Shown here in pieces: positions 17,346 to 56,947 of a DNA stretch of 64,000 nucleotides. Both the position numbers and the translations under genes were made by a program. The notes under the pieces were generated by a model. It saw only the letters and a program-made list of their open reading frames with translations, searched no databases and was not told the origin of the DNA. The DNA is from Escherichia phage Eps7: sequence record NC_010583.1; one strand, written 5' to 3'. The stretch's first letter is position 1; every line of letters starts with the position of its first letter.

Positions 17346-17375
17346 ATTATACAGAATTTTAAAGACTAAAAGCAA
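17346..17375 (-). promoter_or_regulatory. sigma70-type early promoter (-35 TTGCTT, -10 TATAAT on minus strand)
   Basis: plus-strand ATTATA 17346-17351 and AAGCAA 17370-17375, 18-bp spacer, A/T-rich upstream. Confidence 0.6.
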
Positions 17376-17392
17376 CTGAATTTTTTAATTAC

Positions 17393-17824
17393 TTACCAAT
17401 CGTTAATGAAACCTGAGAACTCAGAAGCAAATACTAGCTCAAATTTCTCAGCAATTTCAGGGTGATCTTTACAGATCAGTTCAATGCACTTCTCAGGTTC
17501 CATACCATCTTCCTCAGGATCACCGTAATACTTGTCCCAAAGATCATCAGGAATAACTTGCTCAGCTAGATCTTGGAAGTTCACTAACTGATAGCGTGGA
17601 GTATCCTCATTAATAAAGATCTCATGCAATTCCTCAGATACTTCTCCCTTATAATCGGAAATTAGCAGAGCATTGCAAGCAAAACATTCCCACATCATCA
17701 AACGCTCAGAAATCGGGTTCGATTTGTCTTGAACATAGGACTGAAAGACTGCCTTAAAAGTAGCTTTAACTTGCTCAAACTTATCTGCTGTTGCGATTAA
17801 AAGTGCTTTATCAATCTTTTGCAT
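17393..17824 (-). CDS. hypothetical protein
   Basis: 143-aa ORF. Confidence 0.5.
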   Translation of the reverse strand: MQKIDKALLIATADKFEQVKATFKAVFQSYVQDKSNPISERLMMWECFACNALLISDYKGEVSEELHEIFINEDTPRYQLVNFQDLAEQVIPDDLWDKYYGDPEEDGMEPEKCIELICKDHPEIAEKFELVFASEFSGFINDW

Positions 17825-17854
17825 TTTGATTCCTTCTCATCTAATTATAAAGTA

Positions 17855-17883
17855 ATTATACAGAAAACTAAGCATTTTAGCAA
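17855..17883 (-). promoter_or_regulatory. sigma70-type early promoter (-35 TTGCTA, -10 TATAAT)
   Basis: ATTATA 17855-17860, TAGCAA 17878-17883, 17-bp spacer. Confidence 0.6.
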
Positions 17884-17987
17884 ATGTAAAGTTTTAAAAT
17901 AAAAGGCCTAAGCCTAGGCCCGTAAAGAAAGAGATAAGAACTACTATCCCTATTGCTATAAATATCTCACGAGCCATGCCATCAAAA

Positions 17988-18503
17988 TCAAACATTGATA
18001 TCTCCCCTCAATACCGCTGCCACATCTTCATCGATTTGGAGTACTTCACCAGTAGTACAGTTAACCACTTTATCATAGCTTGTGAATTTGCCAGACACAA
18101 TATCCTCTAGAGGAATAGGAGTCTTGCTCATCTCAAAAGAGACGTTGATATAACGTGGGTCACGCACAGAATTAGTATGCACATGTCCGTGAATGTTTAG
18201 CCTACCACGAAGTTCTGCTTCATGCAATGGACAATGTGACAGCCAAAACTTCTTGCCACCACCTGTTTGCTTACCTAGAGCCTGAATATCATCATAAACG
18301 TCTATAAGATCTTTAATATGCAGACCCTGACGCTCAGCATCGTGGTTTCCCATAATTAGTTGGTTAGGCACGTTGTGGATAACCGACTTCAACTTGGCCA
18401 ACCCTTCTCGCCCCACGGCACTATCTCCTAGCAGCACAAGTTTTGTACGCTTGCCAATGTGCTTGGACAAAGTATCTAGGATATACTCATCGTGCTCTTT
18501 CAT
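17988..18503 (-). CDS. calcineurin-like metallophosphoesterase
   Basis: 171-aa ORF with GDSAVGRE, GNHD and GHVH motifs. Confidence 0.6.
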   Translation of the reverse strand: MKEHDEYILDTLSKHIGKRTKLVLLGDSAVGREGLAKLKSVIHNVPNQLIMGNHDAERQGLHIKDLIDVYDDIQALGKQTGGGKKFWLSHCPLHEAELRGRLNIHGHVHTNSVRDPRYINVSFEMSKTPIPLEDIVSGKFTSYDKVVNCTTGEVLQIDEDVAAVLRGDINV

Positions 18504-18576
18504 GTTCTTAAACCAGGGGCGAAAACGAAGAATCCCTGGGTGGTCTAAGTGGAGTTCACTCCAGAATTTAACTTCA

Positions 18577-18783
18577 TTATTTATTCCTTACACATGTGGA
18601 TATAATAGTATAACTATCGTAGAATATACCTTTTGTGAGTCCAATTTGAATACTGGAATAATCTAGCTCACCTCCAGCTACATCACATAAGTGTTTTGTA
18701 TCTTCTGCAGTAAATCTCATATTATCGTCGTAAGAATCACATCCAGCTAACAGCAATGTAGATAAGAATACCAGCTTTTTCAT
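18577..18783 (-). CDS. small lipoprotein
   Basis: 68-aa ORF with lipobox-like signal MKKLVFLSTLLLAGC. Confidence 0.5.
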   Translation of the reverse strand: MKKLVFLSTLLLAGCDSYDDNMRFTAEDTKHLCDVAGGELDYSSIQIGLTKGIFYDSYTIISTCVRNK

Positions 18784-19082: not shown

Positions 19083-19960
19083 TACAGAATCCTCTGTACA
19101 CCACAGCTATCATTTTTATCTGTGGTAAATGTCATGATCTTACCGGCTTCATCATTAACTTGCGCAACCGTCAACTGCCCGTTGAAAACACCGCCAGTAT
19201 CGAGATAAACACGGTTCTTATACAGAATTGGGTAAGGAACACCAGTGTGTCCGTGGAATACGAAATCCACATTCTCAACTTCTGGTACTTCCACAGTCAA
19301 TTCATCTTTAAATCCCGCATAACGCTGGAAGTATGGATGCTCCGCACCTTGTTTAGACAGATGAAAACCAATTTCTTGAATTACATCACGATCCCATAGA
19401 TACGGCTCAATGTAATAGCTAGGATGATCATTAGGATCATTTTCACTTGCAGCGATATGATCAATAATATCATCCCAATTAGGTGTATGTACATCGAATC
19501 CAGCATCTTTATACTGAAACGGTATTCCGCCATGAACAACACCGTATTTCTTGCCACGATGGAGTACGGTCATGAATACAGGCATTTTAGCTGCCATATC
19601 TTCTGCGATACCTTTAATTGTATCGGTATCCATATCATTCATTGCCCACATCCCTCCATTATACATCCAGTTGGCATAGTCACCCGCAATCATAAACTGA
19701 TCATGGTTGCCACGAACGCTACGGAAGCGTGGGTTATATAAGAATTTGGCTAGGACCTGTAAGTTCTGCGGGCCACGGTCAATTAAGTCGCCAACACAGA
19801 CAACATAGTCACGCTTTTCTTTATATCCTGCTAGTTTAAGAGCATCTTCCAGCATATCATTACAGCCGTGAATATCTCCTACGAAGAACAGGTTAACATC
19901 GTCTGGTACTACTAACATTTCGTGCAGGTTAAATTCTTTTTTCATTATCGAGTCATCCAA
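19082..19960 (-). CDS. serine/threonine protein phosphatase (PPP family, lambda-phosphatase-like)
   Basis: 292-aa ORF with GDIHG, GDLIDRG and GNHD motifs. Confidence 0.8.
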   Translation of the reverse strand: MDDSIMKKEFNLHEMLVVPDDVNLFFVGDIHGCNDMLEDALKLAGYKEKRDYVVCVGDLIDRGPQNLQVLAKFLYNPRFRSVRGNHDQFMIAGDYANWMYNGGMWAMNDMDTDTIKGIAEDMAAKMPVFMTVLHRGKKYGVVHGGIPFQYKDAGFDVHTPNWDDIIDHIAASENDPNDHPSYYIEPYLWDRDVIQEIGFHLSKQGAEHPYFQRYAGFKDELTVEVPEVENVDFVFHGHTGVPYPILYKNRVYLDTGGVFNGQLTVAQVNDEAGKIMTFTTDKNDSCGVQRIL

Positions 19961-20325
19961 TTAGTGTGTTTTTCAGCTTCTGTATCATTTGGCTCAAAGA
20001 CAACGTGACAGTCTACTACTTCCCAGAAAGATTGACGGATGATAGCATTTTGTTCTGCAATATCCAATCCTTCCCATTCTTCAAGTGTTTCTAGATCTGT
20101 ATCAACTTCGGTATCACAGCCCACCAGCCCCAAAGTAACAACAATAGTAACACGGCCTTCACGTTCTTCGGGATAAACTTCAGCATATTCCCAAGCAGCC
20201 TGTTCAACATAGTATTCTTGCTCCGATTTAGACAAAGAGTTATACTTTTCTTCTGTGATTCCCATCTCTACAGCACGAGTACCACAGACCACGTTGTTAT
20301 GTATTATAAGATATGCGTAATTCAA
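19945..20325 (-). CDS. hypothetical acidic protein
   Basis: 126-aa ORF 32 nt downstream of promoter. Confidence 0.5.
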   Translation of the reverse strand: MNYAYLIIHNNVVCGTRAVEMGITEEKYNSLSKSEQEYYVEQAAWEYAEVYPEEREGRVTIVVTLGLVGCDTEVDTDLETLEEWEGLDIAEQNAIIRQSFWEVVDCHVVFEPNDTEAEKHTNWMTR

Positions 20326-20356
20326 TGTGATACTCCCCTCATCAATTTATACATAT

Positions 20357-20386
20357 ATTATATCAAAATTTTTAGTCAGAAAGCAA
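20357..20386 (-). promoter_or_regulatory. sigma70-type early promoter
   Basis: ATTATA 20357-20362, AAGCAA 20381-20386, 18-bp spacer. Confidence 0.6.
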
Positions 20387-20390
20387 GTAA

Positions 20391-20419
20391 TAAAAAACCC
20401 AGATCAGCTAAGATCTGGG
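20391..20419 (-). terminator. rho-independent terminator
   Basis: CCCAGATC-AGCTAA-GATCTGGG stem-loop followed on minus strand by T6. Confidence 0.65.
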
Positions 20420-20428
20420 TTAGATTTA

Positions 20429-20719
20429 TTAATCTTCTGGATTATCTTCCAGGAAGTTTTTGATTGCGTCATGCATAGTTTCTTTACGAAGTTGACGACC
20501 AATCAGAATGTGGTTGGCTTCCACACGACCATTAGGGAGACGATCTGCTAGAACTACTACAGGAACCTGACGAACGCCAAATTTCTGCATAAGTTCTGCA
20601 TTATCAGTCTCTTTATGAACTTCTAGACTGTAGTCCTGTACTACTTTATCGAATACAGGCTCGAACATTTTGCACGGATTGCAGGTAGATCCCTTTAATA
20701 GATATACTAATTTACTCAT
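20429..20719 (-). CDS. thioredoxin/glutaredoxin-like protein
   Basis: 96-aa ORF with CNPC redox motif near N-terminus. Confidence 0.6.
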   Translation of the reverse strand: MSKLVYLLKGSTCNPCKMFEPVFDKVVQDYSLEVHKETDNAELMQKFGVRQVPVVVLADRLPNGRVEANHILIGRQLRKETMHDAIKNFLEDNPED

Positions 20720-21122
20720 GTTTATTAACGGCCTCCAAAAATGCCTTCATTACTTTTACTGTTGCAGTGCTAAGATCTAAGGTAGCACCTAAGCACTCAG
20801 ATACAGCAGCCTGATAAGGGGCTTTTAGCCTGCCTTCCGGTACTTGTACTTTCTTATAGGTTTTCTTTTTGACTTTATCCAGCATCGTTTCAAGAACATT
20901 GAGAGGCAACTTCTGACCTTCAATATTCACGCCAAGCTCTTCCATTAGCATGGTATTTAAGTCAATACGAGTAAGTTTCTTGCCCTTGCTAGACATACGA
21001 ATTCCCGCCTTTTTCTCAAGTTTTGCACGCTCTGGTGAATCGAGGTCACGTAATGCGATGTTCAATTCATACGGAGCCATATTGTAATGGTTAGCCATCT
21101 GAGTGTAGTAACGATCTGACAT
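20712..21122 (-). CDS. hypothetical protein
   Basis: 136-aa ORF. Confidence 0.5.
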   Translation of the reverse strand: MSDRYYTQMANHYNMAPYELNIALRDLDSPERAKLEKKAGIRMSSKGKKLTRIDLNTMLMEELGVNIEGQKLPLNVLETMLDKVKKKTYKKVQVPEGRLKAPYQAAVSECLGATLDLSTATVKVMKAFLEAVNKHE

Positions 21123-21203
21123 TTGTGAAACTCCTCTGATTCAATTTATACAAATATTATATAAAAATTTACAGCGGACAGAGAAGTCAACTACTTTTTT
21201 ATA

Positions 21204-22785: not shown

Positions 22786-22814
22786 ATTATACTAATTCTA
22801 GAGGAAAATTACAA
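22786..22814 (-). promoter_or_regulatory. sigma70-type promoter (-35 TTGTAA, -10 TATAAT) upstream of holin-endolysin
   Basis: ATTATA 22786-22791, TTACAA 22809-22814, 17-bp spacer. Confidence 0.5.
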
Positions 22815-25670: not shown

Positions 25671-25701
25671 AAATTATCCTTTTGCCTCAATCTATAAACA
25701 T

Positions 25702-25730
25702 ATTATATAATACTTGTGGCGTCTGAGCAA
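25702..25730 (-). promoter_or_regulatory. sigma70-type early promoter
   Basis: ATTATA 25702-25707, GAGCAA 25725-25730, 17-bp spacer. Confidence 0.55.
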
Positions 25731-25816
25731 CTGAAATTTTATTACAAAAAATAGCCCAGCCTGCAATTTTGCGACTGGGCTTTGTCATTATTATTCTTGC
25801 TAGGAGGTGATTATCA

Positions 25817-28002: not shown

Positions 28003-28032
28003 TTCAAAGCCCTCTCATCAATTTATATAAAT

Positions 28033-28061
28033 ATTATACCAAGAAAAGAGGGTTTTAGCAA
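28033..28061 (-). promoter_or_regulatory. sigma70-type early promoter
   Basis: ATTATA 28033-28038, TAGCAA 28056-28061, 17-bp spacer. Confidence 0.6.
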
Positions 28062-28078
28062 ATGAATTATTTACGAAA

Positions 28079-30458: not shown

Positions 30459-30489
30459 TTGGTTTTCCTCTCATTAATTTATATAAACA

Positions 30490-30518
30490 TTATATCAAGA
30501 AATAAGAGGAAAGGCAAA
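30490..30518 (-). promoter_or_regulatory. sigma70-type early promoter (-35 TTGCCT)
   Basis: ATTATA 30490-30495, AGGCAA 30513-30518, 17-bp spacer. Confidence 0.55.
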
Positions 30519-30533
30519 TGAATTTTTAAATTT

Positions 30534-33304: not shown

Positions 33305-33548
33305 GGATATTCCTTCTAGTTTACTAAGGCTATTAGCTCGGTGTGCGTATTACCCTCAGACATTAGCCAGTAGAGGATAATCGCTCTTCACAAACCCGAT
33401 ACACTATTCAGTTGCCGCTGAATCTAGCGGACTAATCTAGAACTTCTCCCGAGTCGTAGGGATCGTGCTTTTTTGGCAGCCAGTCCTAGGTCGAGCTAAT
33501 ACCTTAGTGAACTTTGATGAGGATTTCTCCTCATCAATTTATATAAAT
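33305..33548 (-). ncRNA. candidate structured leader / small RNA
   Basis: 245-nt ORF-poor transcribed segment between promoter and next start codon; long-range complement TAAGGTATTAGCTCG vs CGAGCTAATAGCCTTA; local hairpins. Confidence 0.3.
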
Positions 33549-33577
33549 ATTATAACAAGAAATTAAGCATCAAGCAA
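33549..33577 (-). promoter_or_regulatory. sigma70-type early promoter
   Basis: ATTATA 33549-33554, AAGCAA 33572-33577, 17-bp spacer. Confidence 0.6.
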
Positions 33578-33929
33578 GTACATTTTTAGCGATTTCTTGT
33601 AGTTCCTTAACGTCGCTAACGAAAAGGTAATCAGAGCTTCCAGAGTGCATACTCTGCATAACCACACCACCATCCGGTGCATCTTCTTTCAGTGTGATAC
33701 CTAACCAGAACTCGGCAAAACTAGGTGTTACCTCACCTTGACTTGCCTTGAACACATCGCCTTCTGTGATCTCTTGACCAGTGGAGAGTCCCATGTATGG
33801 TACGTTCAGATCAATATCTTTGTAGAACTCAGCTAGATCTTGCTCGAAATCCCAACCTTTAGAGATAGCGAACTCCATTGTTACATGACCGAAATAGCCT
33901 TGAACCTTGCTTGATAATTGCATTTGCAA
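33570..33929 (-). CDS. hypothetical protein
   Basis: 119-aa ORF. Confidence 0.5.
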   Translation of the reverse strand: MQMQLSSKVQGYFGHVTMEFAISKGWDFEQDLAEFYKDIDLNVPYMGLSTGQEITEGDVFKASQGEVTPSFAEFWLGITLKEDAPDGGVVMQSMHSGSSDYLFVSDVKELQEIAKNVLA

Positions 33930-34907: not shown

Positions 34908-34938
34908 AATATTCTTTGTTAACTCACTTTATAAATAT

Positions 34939-34967
34939 ATTATACAGAGAATTAAGCTAAATAGCAA
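34939..34967 (-). promoter_or_regulatory. sigma70-type early promoter upstream of tRNA pair
   Basis: ATTATA 34939-34944, TAGCAA 34962-34967, 17-bp spacer. Confidence 0.6.
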
Positions 34968-35212
34968 CTACATTTTTAATAAATTTACTTATTAGGTAAG
35001 TCACCGAGCTATCAACTCATGCTAGCGAAAGTTTGCGAGACCTTCTTTAAGTACTAGAACACACCCGCCGATGTGTCGGACTTACTTAATAAGTAAACTT
35101 TCGTTTACTTACACCTACCTGGTCGGGAGGATTTTCAGCGACTAGAACCGGCCGGAAACTCATCGCCTTGTTTATCTAGGAGTCCGTTCTCTAGGAAGCA
35201 GAAACCTAAATT

Positions 35213-36590: not shown

Positions 36591-36619
36591 GTTGCTTCTC
36601 CAGTTCAATTTATGTAATA

Positions 36620-36648
36620 ATTATACAGAACTTTAAGGATTTAAGCAA
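36620..36648 (-). promoter_or_regulatory. sigma70-type early promoter
   Basis: ATTATA 36620-36625, AAGCAA 36643-36648, 17-bp spacer. Confidence 0.6.
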
Positions 36649-36928
36649 CTACATTTTTCAGAAATTTGATGCCTTTCTTTTTCTTCTTATACTTCCACGT
36701 TAATGGATTCTGTCGATTATGAACGCTTGAGATCTTTGTCTCGTCAAATTTCTTCAATACCATGTAATCACACGCCAACTGCTCTAGTGGAATGGTTTCT
36801 CCATCAAAAGCATAAACATAAGGCTGTTGACTAGCACGATAATGATAGACTTTGTTAACTCTACGTTTCAGCGACTTATCCGCGCAGTAAATAAAGAAGT
36901 TTTCAGGATGCATCAGCATCTCCTTCAA
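36641..36928 (-). CDS. hypothetical protein
   Basis: 95-aa ORF directly downstream of tRNA. Confidence 0.45.
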   Translation of the reverse strand: MKEMLMHPENFFIYCADKSLKRRVNKVYHYRASQQPYVYAFDGETIPLEQLACDYMVLKKFDETKISSVHNRQNPLTWKYKKKKKGIKFLKNVVA

Positions 36929-37271: not shown

Positions 37272-37396
37272 ATATTTGAATGAAAAATAAGTCGGTTAAA
37301 CTCAAGGTGGAATATTTCAGGAAATCCTGACTTTACCCCTAAAAGCAACTCGCTTAGTTACTTCTCATTCAGATATGTTTTCCAAATTAGATAACT

Positions 37397-37426
37397 ATTA
37401 TATCAAGTTTTGAAGGACTGAGCAAG
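37397..37426 (-). promoter_or_regulatory. sigma70-type promoter overlapping a hairpin
   Basis: ATTATA 37397-37402, AGCAAG 37421-37426; inverted repeat CTGAGCAAG...CTTGCTCAG 37418-37450. Confidence 0.45.
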
Positions 37427-37461
37427 TCAAATTTTAAAGAACTTGCTCAGTGCTATATCAG

Positions 37462-37737: not shown

Positions 37738-37767
37738 TCGTTAACTCCTTCATCAATTTATATAACT

Positions 37768-37797
37768 ATTATAGCAGAAATCTTAAGTAAAAAGCAA
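37768..37797 (-). promoter_or_regulatory. sigma70-type early promoter
   Basis: ATTATA 37768-37773, AAGCAA 37792-37797, 18-bp spacer. Confidence 0.6.
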
Positions 37798-37827
37798 GTA
37801 CATTTTTAAAATTTCTGCTTGGAGGAG

Positions 37828-38894: not shown

Positions 38895-38988
38895 TGGAGG
38901 AAGATGCCAGATTCGAACTGGCACACCGTGTCTCCACAGCTACTGGCTGTTTAGCAAACAGCTCCCTTACCTTTAGGGTTAATCTTCC
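38895..38988 (-). tRNA. tRNA-Ser (GCT), long variable arm
   Basis: manual fold: acceptor GGAAGAT/ATCTTCC, anticodon loop TTGCTAA, T-arm GCCAGTTCGAATCTGGC, 94 nt, CCA. Confidence 0.6.
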
Positions 38989-39002
38989 GAATTTATGAAT
39001 AT

Positions 39003-39031
39003 ATTATACAGAAAATTTCGGCATTAAGCAA
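39003..39031 (-). promoter_or_regulatory. sigma70-type early promoter upstream of tRNA pair
   Basis: ATTATA 39003-39008, AAGCAA 39026-39031, 17-bp spacer. Confidence 0.6.
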
Positions 39032-39039
39032 GTGAAATT

Positions 39040-39336
39040 TTACTGAACATTGCACTGATATACTTGTTTGATACGTGTCACTGACTTCTTAGTTGGGTTG
39101 ATAGAAGAACCCTGCCACCAACGTGATTCTGAGCTGAGAACAGCCCCAGGAACAGCTTGTTCTTTTGGCAGAACAATATCAAAACACTGTTCACCCATAT
39201 TATCTTTAATGTGCGACCAAATGTCTAGAGTAAATCGTTCTAGCTTATTACAAACTTGAACTTGACAAAGTTCCTGTTGTGGAGCAGCAAATACAGAAGT
39301 AGATACTAGAGTCAATGCAAGTACAATGCGTTTCAT
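39040..39336 (-). CDS. secreted/periplasmic protein (signal peptide)
   Basis: track ORF trimmed to MKRIVLALTLVSTSVFA start; MREESNM prefix is a leader artefact. Confidence 0.5.
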   Translation of the reverse strand: MKRIVLALTLVSTSVFAAPQQELCQVQVCNKLERFTLDIWSHIKDNMGEQCFDIVLPKEQAVPGAVLSSESRWWQGSSINPTKKSVTRIKQVYQCNVQ

Positions 39337-39366
39337 ATTTGATTCCTCTCTCAAATTTATAAATAT

Positions 39367-39394
39367 ATTATACAGAAATTTTCTATATAAGCAA
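39367..39394 (-). promoter_or_regulatory. sigma70-type early promoter
   Basis: ATTATA 39367-39372, AAGCAA 39389-39394, 16-bp spacer. Confidence 0.55.
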
Positions 39395-39411
39395 GGTAAA
39401 AATTTATGTAT

Positions 39412-41176: not shown

Positions 41177-41205
41177 ATTTGATTCCTCTCTCAAATTTAT
41201 AAATA

Positions 41206-41234
41206 TATTATACAGAGAATTTAGCGTTCAAGCA
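41206..41234 (-). promoter_or_regulatory. sigma70-type early promoter
   Basis: ATTATA 41206-41211, AAGCAA 41229-41234, 17-bp spacer. Confidence 0.6.
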
Positions 41235-41390
41235 ATCGAATTTTTAAACTTTTTAGTGGAAAAATCTCAAGGCATTTAGTGGTAGCACGTTGTTGCTACA
41301 ATAATAGTATATGTATTACTAAAGTAAATAAAGAATTAAATACTAAAGACCTTAGTTGAATAACTTATGGGCTTTTCTTTTGCCTTAAAT

Positions 41391-42607: not shown

Positions 42608-42633
42608 TTTATTTTCCTAGCAGTTAATAAAAT

Positions 42634-42708: not shown

Positions 42709-43805
42709 TTTAGGTATTTTTAAGAACTCTTATAAAAGCTCTTAAAGATACCCGACGGTAGGTAGGGTCAGCCCCCTCAGATTAAGCTCTGCAGCCCTTC
42801 CGTCAGACAATATCTTCCAGTTTAAGTCAGGGTGACTTTGTGGTTATGTTCTCCGTATGTGAAGAACTCGGTTAGGCTTAGGTCATGACTCCCAGCCTAC
42901 TGCTGCCACTCAACAGGAATTATCGCGAATTACCTGTACTATTGGGCACCATTAGTGACATCTCTCATGTCAGCGTTTCCCACTCTCATATTCACGCGGT
43001 CTGTTAGAATCGCACCTCCGATTTTCGATGCGAAGCTGGATGCCTAGTCTCAGGTTAAACGGGGCACACACTAGGCAGTGATCCCGAGTTCCGAGTTTGG
43101 TTGAGGCCGTCAGGTTTCCTCGTGGTTTAGCTGTTTCGATTCTAACCTAATACTGATCAGGTGGCGTACCTCCTGAACCGTCATAGTATGTACTCCAGCA
43201 GCGAATGCTTATCCGGTATAAGCCCGAGTTATCCGATTCTTTCCAGAAGGAGCAGTAAAGCTCAATGTCAGCCTGTGAGCATCTGGCAGTGTTATCACAT
43301 AAGTCAGTTCGACACCCCACATTTTAGTGCCTGGTAGATCCCGAATGAAGCCCTCAGTCGTTAGACCTCCATCATTCATCAAAGATTTACGCTACCCACT
43401 ATTCGATGGACAATCGCCGCATTGTGGTATACATACGTTTTCACTTGCATCCTAGACGGGTCAGCGTTGAAAGTTATATGGGTTTCTCAAGCCCAACCTT
43501 CAGTCTTCTACCCCTGGGACACGCACCGTATTTCACACTGTGCCTAGCTCCTGTTGAGACCCATCGTTTTGTATAAATTAGAGAAGAGTTTAGAGGAGAG
43601 GTTTCAGACGCCTCATTTTACAAGAAGTCTCGAACCTATATTCGTTACTCTAGTCACTTGGCCGGATATACCGGACTGGACTCGGAACTCTAACAGGTGA
43701 TCATTCTTAACCCACCGACTCTATTCAGTGTCAGAAGCTATCACTAGGTGAATCGCTAAAGCTCACTCAGCGTAATCGGCTCGCTGTTCTCTAATTTATG
43801 AATCT
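42709..43805 (-). other. ~1.1-kb ORF-free, G+C-elevated segment transcribed from an early promoter (candidate large non-coding RNA or foreign insert)
   Basis: no ORF of 60 codons or more in six frames; sampled G+C ~45-52 percent versus ~30-40 percent in flanks; promoter at 43806-43834 points into it. Confidence 0.4.
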
Positions 43806-43834
43806 ATTATACAGAATTTTGGAACGTTTAGCAA
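43806..43834 (-). promoter_or_regulatory. sigma70-type early promoter reading into the ORF-free segment
   Basis: ATTATA 43806-43811, TAGCAA 43829-43834, 17-bp spacer. Confidence 0.6.
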
Positions 43835-43842
43835 ATCAATTT

Positions 43843-44286
43843 TTAATTAAATTCGCCAGCAACCTGAGCAGCAATGCCACCATCGTAACGACCAGGAAAC
43901 TCTTCCTTAATCGCTTTCATCAGCATACCCTTTGTAATCCCAGGATTCAACTTAACTAATTCTGCAAAGTATTTGCGAATCTCAGAATCAGATAACTGAG
44001 GCGGCAGATACTGTTGTAGCCATTTGTTCAGTATATATTCATACTGAGCAGACTGCAAGCTATAATTATCAAGGTCTTGACCGTGAAGTTTAGCTTTTGT
44101 CTGATTAATGCTTTTCAGTTGAGCTTTTAGATAAGATACAAACTGTTCAGAAGTAATGAAGTCTTTATCAACACGCTGAAGATCTCCGATTATAGTCTGG
44201 TAGCTTTTAGCTACTTCTTTATCAGAACCATCAACCTTAGATTCCTGCAAAGCCCTACGCAAAACATCTAGAATATTCTCTTCCAT
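43843..44286 (-). CDS. GatB/YqeY-domain-like protein
   Basis: 147-aa ORF; recalled resemblance of C-terminal region to YqeY family; TAATG overlap with upstream small ORF. Confidence 0.45.
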   Translation of the reverse strand: MEENILDVLRRALQESKVDGSDKEVAKSYQTIIGDLQRVDKDFITSEQFVSYLKAQLKSINQTKAKLHGQDLDNYSLQSAQYEYILNKWLQQYLPPQLSDSEIRKYFAELVKLNPGITKGMLMKAIKEEFPGRYDGGIAAQVAGEFN

Positions 44287-44456: not shown

Positions 44457-44487
44457 ATTTCGCTTCCTCTCATTAATTTATGAAAGT

Positions 44488-44516
44488 ATTATACAGAAAT
44501 TTAAGGCTTTAAGCAA
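44488..44516 (-). promoter_or_regulatory. sigma70-type early promoter
   Basis: ATTATA 44488-44493, AAGCAA 44511-44516, 17-bp spacer. Confidence 0.6.
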
Positions 44517-44524
44517 TCGAATTT

Positions 44525-44992
44525 TTAAGTTTTCTTAACCACAGGCTTGTAGAACGTATGGCCTTGAATCTTCGTTGTTTTCTTAAACTTCTTTGTCCAG
44601 TACGGTTTATCTTTACCACTATGGAAGTATAACGCTCCATGTGTTGGATCTTGTGGTAAATCAACGTAGTATATCACTCTAGCTAAATTCTTAGCAACTT
44701 GCCAAGCCTCATCGGTTTTATCAACTTTTGGTCTCTTGGCCACCCAAGAGAACTGGTTAGACTGATATACTACTTTACAGTAAGAATCAGGAAAGTACCA
44801 GAGTTAACACGGTTTTTTAGTAACCTGTGCAACTGCGATCATTCCTTTAGTGCCCTCACCTCGTGCTTCGAAGTAGATATTTTTTGCAATGCAATCAATC
44901 TGCTTTGAGTCGTAGGTCGCATGACTATTGAAGCTATAGGTTAGGGCAGCTATTAAAAGCAAAGCTGCCTTCATTTTATTTACTCCGGCCAA
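44525..44992 (-). CDS. SleB-like cell wall hydrolase with signal peptide, frame interrupted
   Basis: ORFs 44804..44992 (signal peptide, NIYFEARGE) and 44525..44743 (HGALYFHS); intervening frame reads VNSGTFPDSYCKVVYQSNQFSW. Confidence 0.5.
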
Positions 44993-45297: not shown

Positions 45298-45327
45298 AAT
45301 AGCCTCGTCTCATCAATTTAAAAATAT

Positions 45328-45356
45328 ATTATACAGAAAACTAAACTAATTAGCAA
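45328..45356 (-). promoter_or_regulatory. sigma70-type early promoter
   Basis: ATTATA 45328-45333, TAGCAA 45351-45356, 17-bp spacer. Confidence 0.6.
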
Positions 45357-45736
45357 ATACATTTTTAAATTGAGAGACTAGTAAACCGATAAACAGCCTA
45401 GAGGCGCCACAGGCCATATCTTATGAGCCATGTACCTTTGATCTAGGGTTTGAATCATCAACGAATACTTTGCATCTTTTAGCTTTAGAAGGTTAGAAGT
45501 TTGAGTTCTTTTAACTTTTCAGCTTTCATACTTGAGCGTTGATCTTTGAAGTTGTGTTGGTACTACCAACGACCGTTTTTACAGTTCAGCTTAAGAGGCT
45601 GGTGTAATAAACATAATCTCCAATAGATTATACTTTATAGTATGGTCAGCGGTCTTATTTAACCTCGTATTTCAACCGCTGCTGCGAGGTAAGATGCTTG
45701 GGCTTTCGTCTACCGATTTACTAGTCTTTTAAATTA

Positions 45737-46429: not shown

Positions 46430-46612
46430 TTACAGACCGATTGCCAGCATAGTGCGCAGAACAGTATCAGAACTGTTATCAATATTCGGATTGGCGCGAT
46501 TCAGCACGTTAAAGATTTTCTGGATGCCGGACTGACGCTCAGCCATACGACGCAGACCCAGGTTACGTTTTGCTACTTTACCATTTTTACGGACGTTTTT
46601 AGATACTGGCAT
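46430..46612 (-). CDS. small basic protein
   Basis: 60-aa ORF. Confidence 0.4.
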   Translation of the reverse strand: MPVSKNVRKNGKVAKRNLGLRRMAERQSGIQKIFNVLNRANPNIDNSSDTVLRTMLAIGL

Positions 46613-47385
46613 AATTATTTTCCTTTTGTTGTTCTCTCAAATTTATGAATATATTATACAGAATTTGGAGCTGAAAGCAAATCAAATTTTGATTTTTTTC
46701 GATCATGATGGCTACACAATAACTTTCAACTAAAGCATCGAATGCGGGATCATGTTTCACTGGATAGATTCCATAACGAATGGTATCCATCTTTTCCATT
46801 TTAGCTTTTGCCCAGCTAGCACCTTCGGCTTCTAGATCTTTATAGCTATAACCAGCTTGCATCCACTGATTACGGAAAGATCGAACGTTACCTAAGTTCC
46901 AGAATTTCCACGGAACTATTTCTTCATGGGTTCCGGCATGGAACGTATTTGCAGAGTAGATTGTCATATCAAACTCTGGGCCATTGCCGTAATACAGAGC
47001 ATTATCTCCTAGAGACAATTCCATAATGTTCTGAGCCATAGAGAAGGCAGCATAATTAGAGCCTACGTCATTAGTGCAGTGATGCTTACCATCACGGAAG
47101 GCAATCAGTTTAGGATTACGACCATTTAGAGCCTCCATAATATGGAGCGCAGATGGACTGTTTTTTAGCTTGATCCATCCAGAATGCAATAGTAGAGGCA
47201 GTTACCTTAGCACCCGCATTAAGCTGATCTTGAACGTCTAGAGTAACGAATACCAGATCAGGATCTTTATCAATTCCGTGCATCGCTACAAAAGCGAAAG
47301 AAGGCATTGCAATATGAGTAGTACCGCAATTTCCTGGAGTACCTAGAGATTCAATGTCCAGCATACCAAAGGGCTTGAATTTCAT
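46599..47385 (-). CDS. putative exonuclease-like protein, frame interrupted
   Basis: ORFs 47116..47385 (MLDIESLG acidic motif) and 46599..47189 overlap; 3' end of downstream piece runs into promoter. Confidence 0.4.
46653..46680 (-). promoter_or_regulatory. sigma70-type early promoter
   Basis: ATTATA 46653-46658, AAGCAA 46675-46680, 16-bp spacer. Confidence 0.55.
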
Positions 47386-48462: not shown

Positions 48463-48500
48463 TATTTGTTTTCCTTTTTGTTGATCAATTTATGAGATAT

Positions 48501-48529
48501 ATTATACGAAATTTTGAAGCGTTTAGCAA
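48501..48529 (-). promoter_or_regulatory. sigma70-type early promoter
   Basis: ATTATA 48501-48506, TAGCAA 48524-48529, 17-bp spacer. Confidence 0.6.
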
Positions 48530-48545
48530 ATGAATTTTTTAAAAA

Positions 48546-48824: not shown

Positions 48825-48851
48825 AAAGCCCTCCTCACTTTCAATACGAAT

Positions 48852-48880
48852 ATTATACTAAATTAGAGGGCTTTAAGCAA
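48852..48880 (-). promoter_or_regulatory. sigma70-type early promoter
   Basis: ATTATA 48852-48857, AAGCAA 48875-48880, 17-bp spacer. Confidence 0.6.
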
Positions 48881-48900
48881 GTGAATTTTTAATTTATTTA

Positions 48901-50227: not shown

Positions 50228-50257
50228 TATTAAATCCTTCTGTCAAATTAGAAGTAT

Positions 50258-50286
50258 ATTATATTTGAATTTCACTCAGTAAGCAA
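50258..50286 (-). promoter_or_regulatory. sigma70-type early promoter
   Basis: ATTATA 50258-50263, AAGCAA 50281-50286, 17-bp spacer. Confidence 0.6.
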
Positions 50287-50325
50287 ATGAAATTTAAATA
50301 TAATAGCCCCGAAGGGCTATTTGAA

Positions 50326-51537: not shown

Positions 51538-52062
51538 TTAAATATCACCAATTCTTGTAAGAATGAAAGCGTTTTATCTGCATTCTGTCCTGCCACATAG
51601 TCCATTCTAGTTGCCATTGAATTATAAGTAATATGATGATGCAGATGTACATCAGCAGATAATGGTGTGGCTGAAGTAATAGTAGAGATATACGCCATAT
51701 CTAGATGATTTTTTGACATACATTTCAAGAAGCAGAGTTGCTCCCCCTAATACTACAGTTACCTCTTCCTTGAGAAAATCAGGCAGACGGTATCCAATGT
51801 TGCTTATGCGTGTAGCTGATCTTATAGAGTTCGGTAGTGGTCTATTTGCATAAATAAATAGGTCAGAATCTCCTAGTATTCTTTTTTGCAGAGTCTCAGG
51901 GAATGCTAACCAAGTTCCTGCTCCTACAATAATATTGTCAGGTGCCAGAGAATCCAATGTAGCATAGAAGATATCTAGTTCTTCTTTGAAAGAACCCCAG
52001 GGGAGCTTACCATTGAGGCCGAACTCCCCATTCGGCCCAGTTGCATAGATTGCTGCTATCAT
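51534..52062 (-). CDS. dihydrofolate reductase, frame interrupted near 51700
   Basis: N-terminal MIAAI...GKLPW DHFR motif; two overlapping frames 51652..52062 and 51534..51728. Confidence 0.6.
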
Positions 52063-53207
52063 TAGAACATATCCTCAAATTCGTTGCCAAGATCTTTCAG
52101 AGTATCAGCAGATGTTTCTGTTACTTGACCTACACGATACGCTGCGCCAATCTGAATCTCTTGCGGAGCAGGTTGTAAAGATGTAGTATCCAACCAGTTC
52201 ATAATCCACGGAATAGGGTTCTTAGTAATTACAGGTAAGTGGCTTGGCCATTCTACACCAATGTGCATAAATGCGTTACGTCCTACAAAGTAAAGGTATT
52301 CTTCAAGCAGTTCTGCGTTCAAACCAATCAGACTGCGGCCTTTAAAGATAAAGTGGCCCCATTCAATCTCAGTTTTCAGAGTTTTTAGGAGTTGTGTTGG
52401 TGCTTTAGCTAATGCTTCATCTACCAGATCTTTATCAAATTGCTGGAACATAATCTGGATGATAGCTTTAGACATTTGAGTATGTAGAGCTTCATCTTTA
52501 GCGATTAATTGCAGGTTCTTAGCAATACCTTGCAGAATATCGTTCTCTGCTAGAGCAAAGGTACATGCAAAGGATGCGTAGAACTGCATTGCTTCCAGAC
52601 CGTAGATTGCAAAGTAAGCATCTAACAGCTTAGCCTGAGTTTCACGTTTAACTTCAGGGAACTCAGTTTCTGGATAAGTATTATCACCACGATGATCACG
52701 TACTGCAAGGAAATACTGACCTAACAGATACAATTCATCAAACAGTTCAACAGAATCTGCGATACGTGCAAATGCTTCTTGGTTTTTAGTTACAGAATCA
52801 ATAAATTCTGCTGGATCAGTCAGAACGTTACGAATAATATTACTATACGCACGGCTGTGCAGATCTTCGAAGTAGCTCCACTGCTTGAGCATACCCTCCA
52901 ATTCAGGACGGCTTACAAGCGGCATAATAGCTGCTTCAGGAGCACGGCTAATGAAAGAATCTGTTTGGGTCTGCCATGCTAAGTTCAGGAGAGTAATTTC
53001 CTGAATATCACGCGGAAGGTTTGGCCATTGTTTCTTATCGGCTTCCAGACTGATTTCAGTTTCAGTCCAAAATTGAGAACGTTGCAGAAGTGCTAGACGC
53101 TCAAGTTCAGGATGTGCTACACGAACGTAATCTGCGATACCAAGAGAATCGCCCAGGAAAAGGTCAGCGTTAGTATGATCCCAATTCAGGTTTAGTAAAG
53201 TAGTCAT
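52062..53207 (-). CDS. nrdB: ribonucleotide reductase small subunit
   Basis: 381-aa ORF with ferritin-like DEALH region; sits between DHFR and nrdA. Confidence 0.75.
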   Translation of the reverse strand: MTTLLNLNWDHTNADLFLGDSLGIADYVRVAHPELERLALLQRSQFWTETEISLEADKKQWPNLPRDIQEITLLNLAWQTQTDSFISRAPEAAIMPLVSRPELEGMLKQWSYFEDLHSRAYSNIIRNVLTDPAEFIDSVTKNQEAFARIADSVELFDELYLLGQYFLAVRDHRGDNTYPETEFPEVKRETQAKLLDAYFAIYGLEAMQFYASFACTFALAENDILQGIAKNLQLIAKDEALHTQMSKAIIQIMFQQFDKDLVDEALAKAPTQLLKTLKTEIEWGHFIFKGRSLIGLNAELLEEYLYFVGRNAFMHIGVEWPSHLPVITKNPIPWIMNWLDTTSLQPAPQEIQIGAAYRVGQVTETSADTLKDLGNEFEDMF

Positions 53208-53238
53208 TGATTTTCCTCTTTCTCACTATTTCAGGAAT

Positions 53239-53267
53239 ATTATAGCAAATCTGGTAGCGATTAGCAA
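53239..53267 (-). promoter_or_regulatory. sigma70-type early promoter upstream of nrdB
   Basis: ATTATA 53239-53244, TAGCAA 53262-53267, 17-bp spacer. Confidence 0.6.
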
Positions 53268-53273
53268 GTAAAA

Positions 53274-53756
53274 TTATAAACTATCAAGCTCCAATAGTTT
53301 AGCATCGCGCCATTCTATAGCATCCTCTAATTCTTTAAATGTTTTAGTATGTTTTACACCTTTCCTAGCTATTTGGACTTGATAAGATCCACTTGCTTTT
53401 TGGTGTATATTTTTAATACCTAACTTATTGTCCTTATGTGCTCCAACGTTCTTTCCATTACTAAATCTGTTAGAGGCTAGTAAATTAATTGCTCTATTAT
53501 CATGACGTATTCTATTATCATGATCTACTTCTTTTGGGATGTACCCATGCGTAATATAGAATGCTAGGATATGTGCGTAGTATTTTGTACCTCTTACCTG
53601 CATTACTATGTATCCTGAGCATTTTTCCAAAGAGCCTGCCTCTTTGCCTGCAAACTTAGTATTAAATGATTTATCTTCTCTAGGTTTGTGGGTAAAGATT
53701 CCGGTTTCTGGATTATAGTCAAATAACTCAGCTATTTCTTTGTATTTTTCTTCCAT
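53274..53756 (-). CDS. HNH homing endonuclease
   Basis: 160-aa ORF with HNH motif EVDHDNRIRHDNRAINL; located between nrdA and nrdB. Confidence 0.7.
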   Translation of the reverse strand: MEEKYKEIAELFDYNPETGIFTHKPREDKSFNTKFAGKEAGSLEKCSGYIVMQVRGTKYYAHILAFYITHGYIPKEVDHDNRIRHDNRAINLLASNRFSNGKNVGAHKDNKLGIKNIHQKASGSYQVQIARKGVKHTKTFKELEDAIEWRDAKLLELDSL

Positions 53757-53811
53757 AATCTAAAATTACAGCCATTATAGGCCTAATAAAGGGGCTTTCG
53801 CCCCTTATTTA

Positions 53812-56204
53812 TTATAATTGACAACCACCAGATGCGCATCCAGCAGCAGCTTCCTCTCCTGCACCTCCACCATTTTCAGTGTTGAAGTTTGCATAATAAA
53901 AGGTTTTCCAACCGTACTTAACAGCAGTCATAAAGTCACGAACTACTACTGGGCCGGGAATGATTTCATTCTCGAACTTGGTGTAGTCATAGTACATATT
54001 CGTACTGATAGACTGGCTGAAGAATTTCTGCATGGTTGCTACCCATTTGATCCACTCGATACGATCTACATCATAAGCCAGTTTATAGCTCATTAATGTA
54101 TCCCAATCAGTTGCACCTGGAGCAATTGCAATTACTTTATTAACTGCACTACCCTTGATAGATACGATCTTACGGGGCGGTTCGATAGAGTTAGTAACAC
54201 CTAGCAGTACAGAGGAACTTTCACCTGGCATCTGAGCAGTCAGAACAGAGTTGCGCATACCATATTTCAGAATATCTGCACGCAGAGATTCCCAATCCAT
54301 TTCTAGACCTACAGTTACCAGTTCATCAACAGTTTTCTTGTACGTGTCGATTACCAGAGTTCCTTGCGAAGGCTTAGTACGATTAAACCAGTCACATGCA
54401 CCTTGTTCTTTAGCCAGACGTACAGAGGCTTTATGTAGGAAGTAGGACAGCTTTTCAGCTTCACGGTGAATCCAGTTACGTGCTTCAACACCTTCGTAAG
54501 CCAAACCTTCTGCTGCCATTGCACCTGCTGCGTTCATCAGACCAATACCAACGTTACGACGTTTCTTAGCCGTGTACTTCCATAGTTGGGAATGGGTAAT
54601 CCTGAATCTCGATGATTGTATCAACGAATTTCAGAAGGATGTAGCAAGTTTTCTCCCATTCAGCCAGAGATTCCATGCGGCCTAGTACAACACCACCTAA
54701 GTTACACAGAGATACTTCACCAATATCTTCTGGACGCATATCGTCTAACTGATCTTGGGTTTTATACAGTTCCGTAACGTGATGGAATGGACGGGTGGCT
54801 GAGTAATTCAACACAAAAGGGTTGGTCATACGAATCGGGTCAAGGAAGTTACCATGACGGTTAGATTCACCAATGTGATGAGCATACATACGCCCTGTTT
54901 CCATACGGATACGTAACCAAGTATCTAGGATTTCTTTTGCAGAGATTCTAGGAGCTGCTGGAATTGTTTTTCCTTCGTGGTCGATCTTTGTAAGAGAAGC
55001 CACACGTTTCTCCGCTGCCACGTAGATTTCTTCAAACTTAGCCTCATCTTCACCATAAAACGCTTCATGAACTTCTGGTGCGTAGAAGTAGGACATTAGC
55101 GTAATATCTTCGTTTTTCAGGTAACGTTTTAACAGAAGGTTGTTAAAGCTCAGAGAATAATCCATCTTATCGATTTTATTCTCGTCTGTAGCACGTTGCT
55201 GCTTAACCTGCATCAACTGAATGATTTCAGGATCGAAGTATGGATAAGACACAGTAGCAGAACCGCCACGGGTTTGCTGAGTGTTAGCTTTTACTGATCG
55301 GTCAATGTGTCGATAATATGGCAGTTTTCCGGAATGCGGGAATGCCCCATTTCGCACCGGATCAGCAATTGATCGGCTTTCAAGATGATACCCGATTCCC
55401 GCTCTGGCTGCGACCATTTTGAAGACGATGTGCTCGGCTGTGTCGATTGAATCCAGCGTGTCAGTGGAATCCACGAGACAGCAACTAGCAAATCCACGGT
55501 CACTAGAGCGCAGGCCAACCAGTGGCGGCGTAGGAACGTTGATTTTGTGGAGCGACATTGCATTGTAGAGGTCGATTGCATCTAGGATTGTCCAGTTAGG
55601 TTGAGATAACATCGCCATTGCCATACCCATGTAGGCAAACTGCGGGGTTTCATAAATTTCACCAGTTGCAATATTACGACGAGAATACTTGTCGAAGAAC
55701 TGTTTCAGTCCACCACTGGTGAATAAACGATCGCGATCATGATCAATAACTTGGTTCAGAGCGTCAAACTGATCATCGCTAATCCATGCACTCATGTCTT
55801 CCCAGCGCCAACACGAACCATATGATCGTGGAAGAAACGCAGAGAAGGGGTTCAAAGGAATCATATAGGCGTTTACGCATCTGCGCAAGACGTAATTCCT
55901 TTGCTACAGTATCATATGCTGGGTTGTCTTTGATAAGACCTTCAGCGGCTTTAATTAACACATCTTGGAGGGTATCGGAATCTACAACACCTTTTGGTAG
56001 ATTTTTCTGGGCAGACATAACGACGGCAGACCAACTTACGTCAGTTGCTTTACATGCCCATGCAGCCCAATCATTGAGTTTTTCAGGAGCAAAGTCCTGA
56101 ACAGTACCGTCACGTTTAATTACTTTTTCAATACTATGGCTCATTGGGGTTTCCTTTTTGTAGTTATCAGGATTTAGGAAATATTCTACTTTGTTTTGGG
56201 TCAT
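53812..56204 (-). CDS. nrdA: ribonucleotide reductase large subunit, frame interrupted twice
   Basis: three consecutive ORFs (55779..56204 with ATP-cone VIKRDGT, 54566..55888, 53812..54624 ending in Cys-rich tail); breaks near 55800-55880 and 54570-54620. Confidence 0.75.
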
Positions 56205-56267
56205 TATGCAAGTACAATTTTACAGATAAAAAGAGCCCGGATATTTTCATACCCAGGCTCGTCTGTC

Positions 56268-56510
56268 TTACCATTTAAGTTTATCGGTTATATCAATTAG
56301 CTTCTGTTGTATTTCTCGGTTGAAGAGAATATCTACAGAAGTACTTAGTTCATTATAGTTGAAAGGCCGATTTGGATTAGAGGCTACAATTTTCCACGCT
56401 AGGGTAGTCTTAGGACTTTCTTCCCCTTCCTTACGTGTAATCATGTTAGCAGCACTCAGTGAAGTACGGTGGATCTTAGTTTTGCGGTGCAGATGTACGA
56501 CGTTTCCCAT
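56268..56510 (-). CDS. hypothetical protein
   Basis: 80-aa ORF. Confidence 0.45.
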   Translation of the reverse strand: MGNVVHLHRKTKIHRTSLSAANMITRKEGEESPKTTLAWKIVASNPNRPFNYNELSTSVDILFNREIQQKLIDITDKLKW

Positions 56511-56511
56511 A

Positions 56512-56845
56512 TTACACCTTCCCCATATCCTTAAAGATATCGTAGAATGCTTTAGACTCCGGTGAGCGAACGTTGTCGATCAGTTCGATCATAGAGAAAG
56601 GAGAGTTTTCGTACTTCTCATAGACTTCCATAAGAAGTGCTAGACCTGAATCACCCTTGATGTCTTTCTGAGCTATATCCCCACAGATAATTAAACGACA
56701 ATCTTGTCCTACACGAGTCAGGAGACAGATCATTGCTTCAACGGAGATATTCTGAGCTTCATCGACAATTACATAGGAGTTGTTGAATGTTGCCACGCTT
56801 TCTTGAACCATTGCGGTTCTCTCTTTTTTGACGTGCTTTTCCCAT
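56512..56845 (-). CDS. PhoH-like P-loop ATPase fragment (Walker B only)
   Basis: VIVDEAQN and CGDIAQKD motifs; probable start MGKARQKRE upstream with frame shift at an A6 run. Confidence 0.45.
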
Positions 56846-56918
56846 AAATAACACTCCTATAGTGTACTTCGCTAACAGAGGATCAACAAAAAGATCTTGT
56901 TTATCAACTTACAAATAT

Positions 56919-56947
56919 ATTATACCAATATATGCGGGAGAAAGCAA
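56919..56947 (-). promoter_or_regulatory. sigma70-type early promoter
   Basis: ATTATA 56919-56924, AAGCAA 56942-56947, 17-bp spacer. Confidence 0.55.

Follow-up and report, generated by a model that had tools for sequence, protein, structure and literature searches.

Since the 1980s, the early promoters of bacteriophage T5 have served as models of strong promoters, and common expression vectors are built on them. Here, we describe a related family in a 64,000-nucleotide stretch of Escherichia phage Eps7 (sequence record NC_010583.1; the whole stretch is called the window), in which one extended sigma-70 promoter motif occurs in 27 copies. We are confident, at a probability of about 0.93, that these copies are strong early promoters of a T5-like phage, read through the host sigma-70 and fused to short, unstructured leaders that carry a ribosome-binding site. 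The family itself is already known, being annotated in T5 records and matched by the consensus published for T5-like phages.

Hsu and Han describe the T5 promoter N25 as a canonical UP element, TTGctt, an AT-rich UP-like spacer, TATAAT and a discriminator of 6 bp; they report from in vitro transcription that the native initial transcribed sequence evolved for fast escape, and they draw a parallel to lambda PR (PMC12464699). T5 early promoters were further reported to share an ATATT discriminator (Klimuk et al. 2020; PMC7472727). For the T5-like phage AKFV33, 32 promoters were published with TTGCTw, a 17-18 bp spacer, TATAATA, AAAAATT at -43 and TAAATT at +1; they were found by eye and with a neural-network predictor, and classes were not separated (PMC3326045). 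Among the T5 records, AY587007 carries the features “putative early promoter T5P6...T5P38” together with copies of “repeat a/b/c” that span the part from the -10 hexamer to the leader, and AY692264 and NC_005859 name the promoters P-F30, P13a, P13b, P16-17, P-D/E33 and P-H207. A literature search for a transcription-start-site or transcriptome study of T5 returned nothing relevant.

The window belongs to a T5-like phage of the genus Epseptimavirus, since a 6-kb piece of it (38000-44000) shares 97.5% identity with Salmonella phage S116 (Demerecviridae, Markadamsvirinae, genus Epseptimavirus); T5 itself is placed in the genus Tequintavirus. The same piece matches 529 phage records, nearly all of them T5-like. 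Read against the S116 and T5 annotation, the window opens with the pre-early region (1 to ~12 kb; deoxyribonucleotidase, A1-type DNA transfer protein), continues with a minus-strand early region (~12-57 kb) of nucleotide-metabolism genes and 29 tRNA genes, and ends in a plus-strand early region (57-64 kb) with nrdD and Sir2-like genes, leading up to the origin-binding protein gene. Over the whole window, Rfam at its gathering threshold returned tRNAs only. Synteny blocks show that the window and T5 are colinear throughout the early promoter region.

One motif in 27 copies

The minus strand carries 25 copies between 17346 and 56947, of which 23 are strong and 2 marginal, and the plus strand carries 2 further copies (sites 59142 and 62419, at ~59.1 and ~62.4 kb). 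All 27 are oriented like the local genes, with a median spacing of ~1.4 kb between promoter units. A preliminary description of this DNA, made from the letters alone, had placed more than 25 near-identical promoters within 17346-56947. That number is right for the whole window and too high for the interval, and the copies are less alike than was thought, with only 60-79% identity to a reference copy over 58-75 nt.

The enrichment of the motif is large. In the window, TTGCTT-N17-TATAAT with at most one mismatch gives 20 matches against 1.05 expected, and TTGCTT-N17-TATAAT-NNNTNN-ATAAATT with at most three mismatches gives 21 against 0.02. A weight matrix made of two blocks with a gap of 16-18 bp, built from 25 sites hand-picked in a relaxed scan and run over both strands, scored those sites at 33-60 bits; left out one at a time, they scored 20.5-55 bits, with a median of 44. 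By comparison, 30 first-order Markov randomisations of the window yielded no score above 13.2 bits. The position weight matrix scan by which the preliminary description proposed to check the family, run here over the 64-kb window, thus puts family sites far above the randomised maximum, and it added two weaker members, sites 21156 and 56183. Moreover, the family was recovered by a repeat finder blind to promoters, which gave 20 copies of 58 nt.

The members, predicted early promoters, are listed below. Sites are named by the position of the -10 hexamer (e.g. 17346), coordinates run from -47 to +18, scores are matrix bits, and +1 is the seventh base after the -10 hexamer, as in N25; CDS stands for coding sequence.

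17322..17387, minus strand: early promoter; TATAAT 17346-17351, 18-bp spacer, predicted +1 at 17339; CDS 17060-17311, with its ATG 34 nt after the -10; 54.6 bits (leave-one-out 50.7); syntenic with T5P8
17831..17895, minus strand: early promoter; +1 at 17848; CDS 17393-17824; 35.4 bits (leave-one-out 22.4); aligns with T5 P-F30; terminator-like hairpin 17904-17921 just upstream
20333..20398, minus strand: early promoter; 18-bp spacer, +1 at 20350; CDS 19945-20325 (TTG start); 42.9 bits; syntenic with T5P10; terminator hairpin 20396-20421 abuts
21132..21197, minus strand: atypical member, site 21156; perfect -10, discriminator, ATAAATT and Shine-Dalgarno, no -35 hexamer at 16-18 bp; CDS 20712-21122; downstream block 35.5 bits, upstream block -12.9; TTGACT at 17 bp is present in the T5 counterpart, T5P11
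25678..25742, minus strand: early promoter; +1 at 25695; CDS 24972-25670; 45.0 bits (leave-one-out 36.1); syntenic with T5P13
28009..28073, minus strand: early promoter; +1 at 28026; CDS 27721-28002; 54.2 bits; syntenic with T5P14 / repeat b copy 1
30465..30529, minus strand: early promoter; +1 at 30482; CDS 30165-30458; 49.5 bits; syntenic with T5P16
33525..33589, minus strand: early promoter without CDS, site 33549; transcript opens with a perfect 10-bp hairpin (~+6 to +29); 53.5 bits; aligns with T5 P13b (followed in T5 by the annotated RNA2H)
34915..34979, minus strand: early promoter for tRNA-Pro and tRNA-Met, site 34939; tRNA-Pro 34829-34907 starts 31 nt after the -10; 57.4 bits; aligns with T5 P13a
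36596..36660, minus strand: early promoter; +1 at 36613; CDS starting at 36590; 51.3 bits; syntenic with T5P18
37373..37437, minus strand: early promoter for the tRNA-Tyr/Glu/Trp/Phe cluster, site 37397; tRNA-Tyr 125 nt downstream; 51.9 bits; syntenic with T5P19
37744..37809, minus strand: early promoter; 18-bp spacer; CDS 37462-37737; 50.8 bits; syntenic with T5P20
38979..39043, minus strand: early promoter for tRNA-Ser, site 39003; tRNA-Ser 38895-38988 starts at ~+8 of the predicted RNA; 60.5 bits, highest of the family
39343..39406, minus strand: early promoter; 16-bp spacer; CDS 39040-39336, in-frame TTG 39352-39354; 50.9 bits; exact leader copy
41183..41247, minus strand: early promoter of the nadR-like gene (40121-41176) and pnuC; in-frame TTG 41192-41194; 58.4 bits; second exact leader copy
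43782..43846, minus strand: early promoter for a 1.09-kb stretch without open reading frames (42709-43799) that ends at tRNA-Arg, site 43806; 58.3 bits; syntenic with T5 P16-17, upstream of “RNAX”; discriminator AGATTC, as in N25
44464..44528, minus strand: early promoter; CDS 44286-44456; 54.7 bits; aligns with T5 P-D/E33
45304..45368, minus strand: early promoter; CDS 44980-45297; 57.4 bits; syntenic with T5P23
46629..46692, minus strand: early promoter; 16-bp spacer, 34-nt leader; CDS 46430-46612; 54.5 bits; syntenic with T5 “repeat c copy 4”
48477..48541, minus strand: early promoter; CDS 47947-48462; 46.3 bits; aligns with the classic T5 P-H207
48828..48892, minus strand: early promoter with a weak ATAAATT match; CDS 48546-48824; 41.5 bits (upstream block 27.7, downstream block 13.8); position as T5P26
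50234..50298, minus strand: early promoter; CDS 49649-50227; 44.9 bits (leave-one-out 36.4); hairpin upstream
53215..53279, minus strand: early promoter with a divergent transcript start; ribonucleotide reductase beta subunit gene 52062-53207; 33.2 bits (leave-one-out 20.5); syntenic with T5P28
56159..56223, minus strand: marginal member, site 56183; TTGCAT, TAGAAT, no ATAAATT; CDS starting at 56144; 16.6 bits (upstream block 20.4, downstream block -3.7); terminator hairpin 56233-56260 just upstream
56895..56959, minus strand: early promoter, first of the minus-strand block, site 56919; 101-nt leader before CDS 56512-56811; 52.6 bits; syntenic with T5P30
59102..59166, plus strand: early promoter, site 59142; CDS 59172-59453; 40.8 bits (leave-one-out 29.9); syntenic with T5P31 / repeat c copy 5
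62379..62443, plus strand: early promoter, site 62419; long leader, no start codon within 260 nt; 42.5 bits (leave-one-out 33.1); position as T5P32, upstream of the origin-binding protein gene

The motif extends from -47 to +18. At its upstream end lies an A-tract (A at -45, -44, -43 and -42 in 24, 23, 21 and 24 of the 27 sites), followed by T-40 (26/27) and A-37 (24/27). The -35 element reads TTGCT(T/A), with T-35 and T-34 at every site, G-33 and C-32 at 26 and T-31 at 23; TTGC is kept in 26 of 27, as TTGCTT at 14 sites and TTGCTA at 7. The spacer measures 17 bp at 21 sites, 18 bp at 4 and 16 bp at 2, is A/T-rich from -21 to about -16/-15 and carries G-13 at 17 sites. The -10 hexamer is TATAAT at all sites except one. 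Its 6-bp, AT-rich discriminator shows A-6 (23/27), T-5 (19), T-3 (24) and T-1 (20), and the predicted transcript starts with A+1 (20/27), T+2, A+3 and A+4 (24 each), A+5 and T+6 (21 each) and T+7 (23). Over +1 to +7, ATAAATT is matched at six or more of its seven positions at 18 sites and at five or more at 22, against a background frequency of 0.4% for the stricter match. A purine-rich block follows at +8 to +18.

At 20 of the 27 sites, a start codon lies 27-40 nt past the -10 hexamer (ATG except for one TTG); the median of 30 nt agrees with the distance of about 30 nt given by the preliminary description. All 20 have a Shine-Dalgarno sequence (GAGG, GGAG or AAGG) 5-10 nt upstream of the start codon and predicted leaders of 21-34 nt, in which we detected no structure beyond that of shuffled sequences (mean -2.7 kcal/mol, mean z-score +0.35). 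The view that the motif leads into a start codon therefore covers these sites and does not extend to the other seven (34939, 39003, 37397, 33549, 43806, 56919 and 62419), which have no coding sequence directly following and drive tRNAs, non-coding RNAs or long leaders. In four of these seven, ATAAATT is matched at six or more positions, and two more come close; the G-rich Shine-Dalgarno block is missing in most. Since most of the seven keep ATAAATT and most lose the Shine-Dalgarno, we assign ATAAATT to the level of transcription and GAGAGG to ribosome binding. What had been called a conserved leader is therefore made of two adjoining functional elements, a transcription start element and a ribosome-binding site.

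As a degenerate consensus, that leader is real; as a quoted string, it is not general. Indeed, the 18-nt TTGAGAGAGGAATCAAAT occurs in the window in two copies only (39337-39354 and 41177-41194), even with up to three mismatches allowed. In both copies, TTG AGA GAG GAA TCA AAT ATG forms an open frame, and the mechanical list of open reading frames accordingly gives TTG starts for 39040-39354 and 40121-41194. In S116, the closest annotated relative, both genes begin at the ATG and lack these 18 nt, which bears out the suggestion that the in-frame TTG adds a spurious MREESN prefix. In the predicted transcript, the leader TTG would occupy +9 and precede the Shine-Dalgarno. For annotation, the true start is the ATG after the leader and not the in-frame TTG.

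Relation to T5 and to other strong promoters

In the 10-60 kb region of T5, the 42-nt extended pattern gives 20 matches against 0.05 expected; 15 fall within annotated early promoters (T5P8...T5P31) and 4 within the repeat b/c features of AY587007. Five sites of the window align nearly base for base with T5 P-F30, P13a, P13b, P-D/E33 and P-H207, and site 43806 is syntenic with P16-17, the two matching over the 42-nt core. The window promoters and the T5 early promoters thus share architecture, genome locations and orientation. For N25, a 70-mer taken as its sequence is 100% identical to an annotated T5 early promoter. N25 follows the same plan as the window family, with TTGCTT, a 17-bp spacer ending in CTG, TATAAT, a 6-bp discriminator and a transcript starting with ATAAATTTGAGAGAGGA; its own counterpart would fall past the end of the window. 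The proposal that the family has the T5 early promoter architecture is upheld by this synteny with annotated promoters, by the alignment with five named ones and by the plan shared with N25. The two phages also differ: some of the cassettes between promoters are not those of T5 (e.g., nadR-pnuC in the window), and site 21156 is without a properly spaced -35 hexamer, which its T5 counterpart has.

The consensus published for AKFV33 is the motif found in the window, whose A-rich block matches the AAAAATT at -43. Unlike in the AKFV33 paper (PMC3326045), the window family could be assigned to the early region only, and it includes units that drive tRNAs and non-coding RNAs. The family further resembles strong sigma-70 promoters with a UP element, such as rrnB P1 and lambda PR, in its A/T-rich block upstream of the -35 element, its near-consensus hexamers and its 17-bp spacer. 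Unlike in these promoters, the A-tract is short and close to the -35 element (-45 to -39), and the -35 element begins TTGC rather than TTGA. In the window, the discriminator and the first seven transcribed bases are conserved as well; we know of no such conservation of either among host promoters as a class. The early promoters of T4 form another large and very strong family that depends on the host polymerase and has an extended consensus with an upstream A-rich block. They differ in their -35 consensus and are not known to start with ATAAATT, and they are regulated through ADP-ribosylation and AsiA/MotA, not two-step DNA transfer.

Each conserved block of the window family has a described role in the T5 literature, from which a mechanism can be proposed. 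The A-tract at -45 to -42, with T-40, resembles the proximal UP-element subsite bound by the alpha subunit of the polymerase. TTGCT(T/A) and TATAAT, 17±1 bp apart, would be the -35 and -10 elements, with the AT-rich -21 to -15 and G-13 probably shaping the spacer between them, and the AT-rich discriminator (A-6, T-5, T-3, T-1) would favor strand opening. Transcription would most likely start at the A seven bases past the -10 hexamer, and the initial AUAAAUU may favor rapid promoter escape, as shown experimentally for T5 N25. Before protein genes, a GAGG-type Shine-Dalgarno at ~+11 to +16 and an ATG at ~+25 should then allow efficient translation. Arranged in this way, some 25 units could split the minus-strand early region into short operons, including tRNA and non-coding RNA units.

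Directly observed are the motif itself and its enrichment, how its copies are oriented and spaced, and the synteny of these copies with annotated promoters of T5. Several points weigh against the interpretation built on them. The start site, the strength and the early timing of the promoters are presumed from T5 by homology. A generic TTGACA/TATAAT sigma-70 scan shows no enrichment over shuffles (56 versus 51.7; 50 versus 51.2), and the evidence therefore rests on the family-specific motif. Discriminators that begin with ATATT number only 7 of 27, so the ATATT hallmark is a consensus and not a rule. The canonical extended -10 (TGn; T-15, G-14) is present at just 9 of 27 sites; TG abutting TATAAT (T-14, G-13) is found at 12, and neither register at 6. 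Members 21156 and 56183 are weak or atypical. Finally, selection accounts in part for the zero or near-zero differences that window sites and their T5 counterparts show in the hexamers and in ATAAATT, because the search pattern specified those positions for both partners; the upstream spacer and the discriminator, which lay outside that pattern except for T-3, differ at 30% and 11% of positions, respectively.

Scientifically, little is added to what T5 records and the literature on T5-like phages already hold about the family. Its use for annotation also lies in delimiting some 25 short early operons and in flagging non-coding units predicted to be strongly transcribed, among them the counterpart of T5 “RNAX”. 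The earlier statement that the promoters define the operon structure is plausible, although other promoter types are also present (e.g., 22786-22814). Hairpins lie directly upstream of several family promoters, and a generic terminator scan is marginally enriched (18 versus 12.7 and 16 versus 12.3).

Other readings of the conserved positions

Some conserved positions may do more than set intrinsic strength. C-32, G-13, the discriminator pattern and ATAAA(T/G)T at +1 to +7 could form a code for the promoter class that is read by a phage modifier of RNA polymerase, such as gpT5.026, and serves to turn early transcription off or on; this idea would add to the promoter interpretation rather than replace it, and we regard it as unlikely. 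C-32 is as invariant as the TTG before it (26/27), though the sigma-70 consensus has A there. The pattern TTGCT(A/T)-N17-TATAAT-N6-ATAAA(T/G)T is also shared widely, by T5, the Klebsiella Sugarlandvirus IME260 (13 matches versus 0.01 expected) and Vibrio phage pVp-1 (NC_019529, 7218-45643; subfamily Ermolyevavirinae; 11 versus 0.04), that is, by at least two subfamilies of Demerecviridae with hosts from E. coli to Vibrio. The signature of pVp-1 is TTGCTA-N17-GTATAAT-N6-ATAAAKT, with TTGC in 16 of its 17 TTG-N20-TATAAT sites and G-13 at most sites. The persistence of such non-consensus positions into a Vibrio phage bears on how T5-like phages switch between temporal classes.

The family is specific to its class. 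Window positions 1-17 kb, which include the pre-early 1-12 kb, hold no family match of 20 bits or more, and the promoter-like sites of the pre-early region have TTGACA and no ATAAATT. In T5, the late structural block (~28 kb) has no pattern matches, and the ~45 kb from 66 to 111.6 kb has three, all at early-type sites (T5P37, repeat c copy 7 and T5P41 before llp). The window also encodes a homolog of gpT5.026 (15076-15513, minus strand, 145 aa, 92% identical). T5 gpT5.026 binds RNA polymerase and weakens its discriminator contacts, and loss of its gene raises early transcripts and lowers late ones; its effect in vitro is weak, however, at two-fold or less (PMC7472727). Furthermore, pure E. coli polymerase suffices for high activity of N25, whose native initial sequence needs no phage protein to speed escape; for N25, the published explanation is optimized binding-versus-escape kinetics (PMC12464699). 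A tblastn search with the window homolog named no Vibrio phage among the groups in its summary; the motif may therefore persist where gpT5.026 is not detectable. The timing of T5 early transcription can, moreover, be explained by delayed DNA entry alone, and two-step DNA transfer is well established for T5. Such a code, if real, would open the early-to-late switch of T5 to molecular study; alternatively, the positions may simply be optimal for promoter strength and escape.

A second possibility concerns ATAAATT(G)A alone, which might act mainly in the RNA, as a translation enhancer, a landing site for ribosomal protein S1 or a signal for processing or stability. The leaders are indeed AU-rich, short and unstructured, and ATAAATT stands at a fixed distance from the Shine-Dalgarno at the 20 sites before a CDS. 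Yet its distance is fixed to the -10 hexamer and not to the start codon, the leader varying from 21 to 34 nt, and the effect of the initial sequence of N25 on escape was seen in transcription in vitro (PMC12464699). ATAAATT is also retained before untranslated tRNAs and non-coding RNAs; at site 39003, where the tRNA starts at ~+8, trimming would remove the element. In view of this retention before tRNAs, we consider a role at the RNA level improbable, more so than a class code.

Least credible by far is the notion that the repeats are not promoters but dispersed elements involved in mobility or recombination, or signals for replication or packaging, which look like promoters only because the genome is AT-rich: an older T5 annotation does label parts of them merely “repeat a/b/c”, and an exact 43-nt duplicate flanks the nadR-pnuC cassette, but the orientation matches the genes at 27/27 sites, the spacing to start codons is fixed, the -10 is perfect in 26/27, no terminal inverted repeats or target duplications are present, and the T5 counterparts P-H207, P-F30 and N25 are promoters that have been cloned and functionally characterized. 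Break points of synteny between the window and T5 fall into the 91-nt promoter footprints in 8 of 63 cases versus 3.4 expected (P about 0.02), under a uniform null that is too lenient because break points favor intergenic DNA anyway; we judged this too weak to claim the promoter repeats as recombination break points.

Non-coding units, cassettes and neighboring promoter-like sites

Two of the promoters without a CDS precede non-coding stretches. From promoter 43806 to tRNA-Arg(TCT), 1.09 kb of the minus strand (42709-43799) contains no open reading frame of more than 57 aa and has a G+C content above that of its surroundings. It corresponds to the T5 feature “RNAX, stable RNA with unknown functions” (NC_005859 40848-41566), the window version being longer. 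Among relatives, the stretch is mosaic, with at least 80% of it covered in just 15 of 521 records. Folding gives a z-score of -3.47 for the 3' 329 nt and of -0.32 for the 5' 762 nt, and an alignment of four sequences has 9 base pairs kept through changes on both sides. No further Rfam match at E ≤ 1 was found in 42600-43860, and a literature search on T5 stable RNAs returned nothing on RNAX.

The other stretch lies downstream of promoter 33549, of the P13b type, where no coding sequence occurs for more than 230 nt; the T5 counterpart is followed by “RNA2H”. The predicted transcript (33513-33542, minus strand) begins with AUAAAUUGAUGAGGAGAAAUCCUCAUCAA and forms a perfect 10-bp hairpin from ~+6.

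The promoters at 39343-39406 and 41183-41247 share 43 identical bases, from CTG-TATAAT through ATGA. These copies flank the nadR-like/pnuC cassette (39442-41176); in T5, the corresponding promoters enclose a different gene. Cassettes may be exchanged by recombination at promoter repeats.

Promoter-like sites of a different type, with TTGACA, TTGAAC or TTGACG and no ATAAATT, are found at 820-848, 4711-4738, 6471-6500, 11187-11215, 13618-13646 and 57140-57168, that is, in the pre-early region and before nrdD (57140-57168). This suggests that the phage has at least two promoter classes.

Promoter-like matches on the plus strand overlap family promoters at 25682-25711, 34916-34943, 46626-46657 and 48478-48505. 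They arise because TATAATATATT read backwards resembles a -10 hexamer and are probably artefacts; T5 annotates one back-to-back promoter pair. A divergent control region (56895-57168) lies between the minus- and plus-strand early blocks. It comprises the family promoter 56919 on the minus strand, a TTGCCA/TATAAT pair on the same strand (57060-57088) and, on the plus strand before nrdD, a TTGACA/TATAAT pair at 57140-57168.

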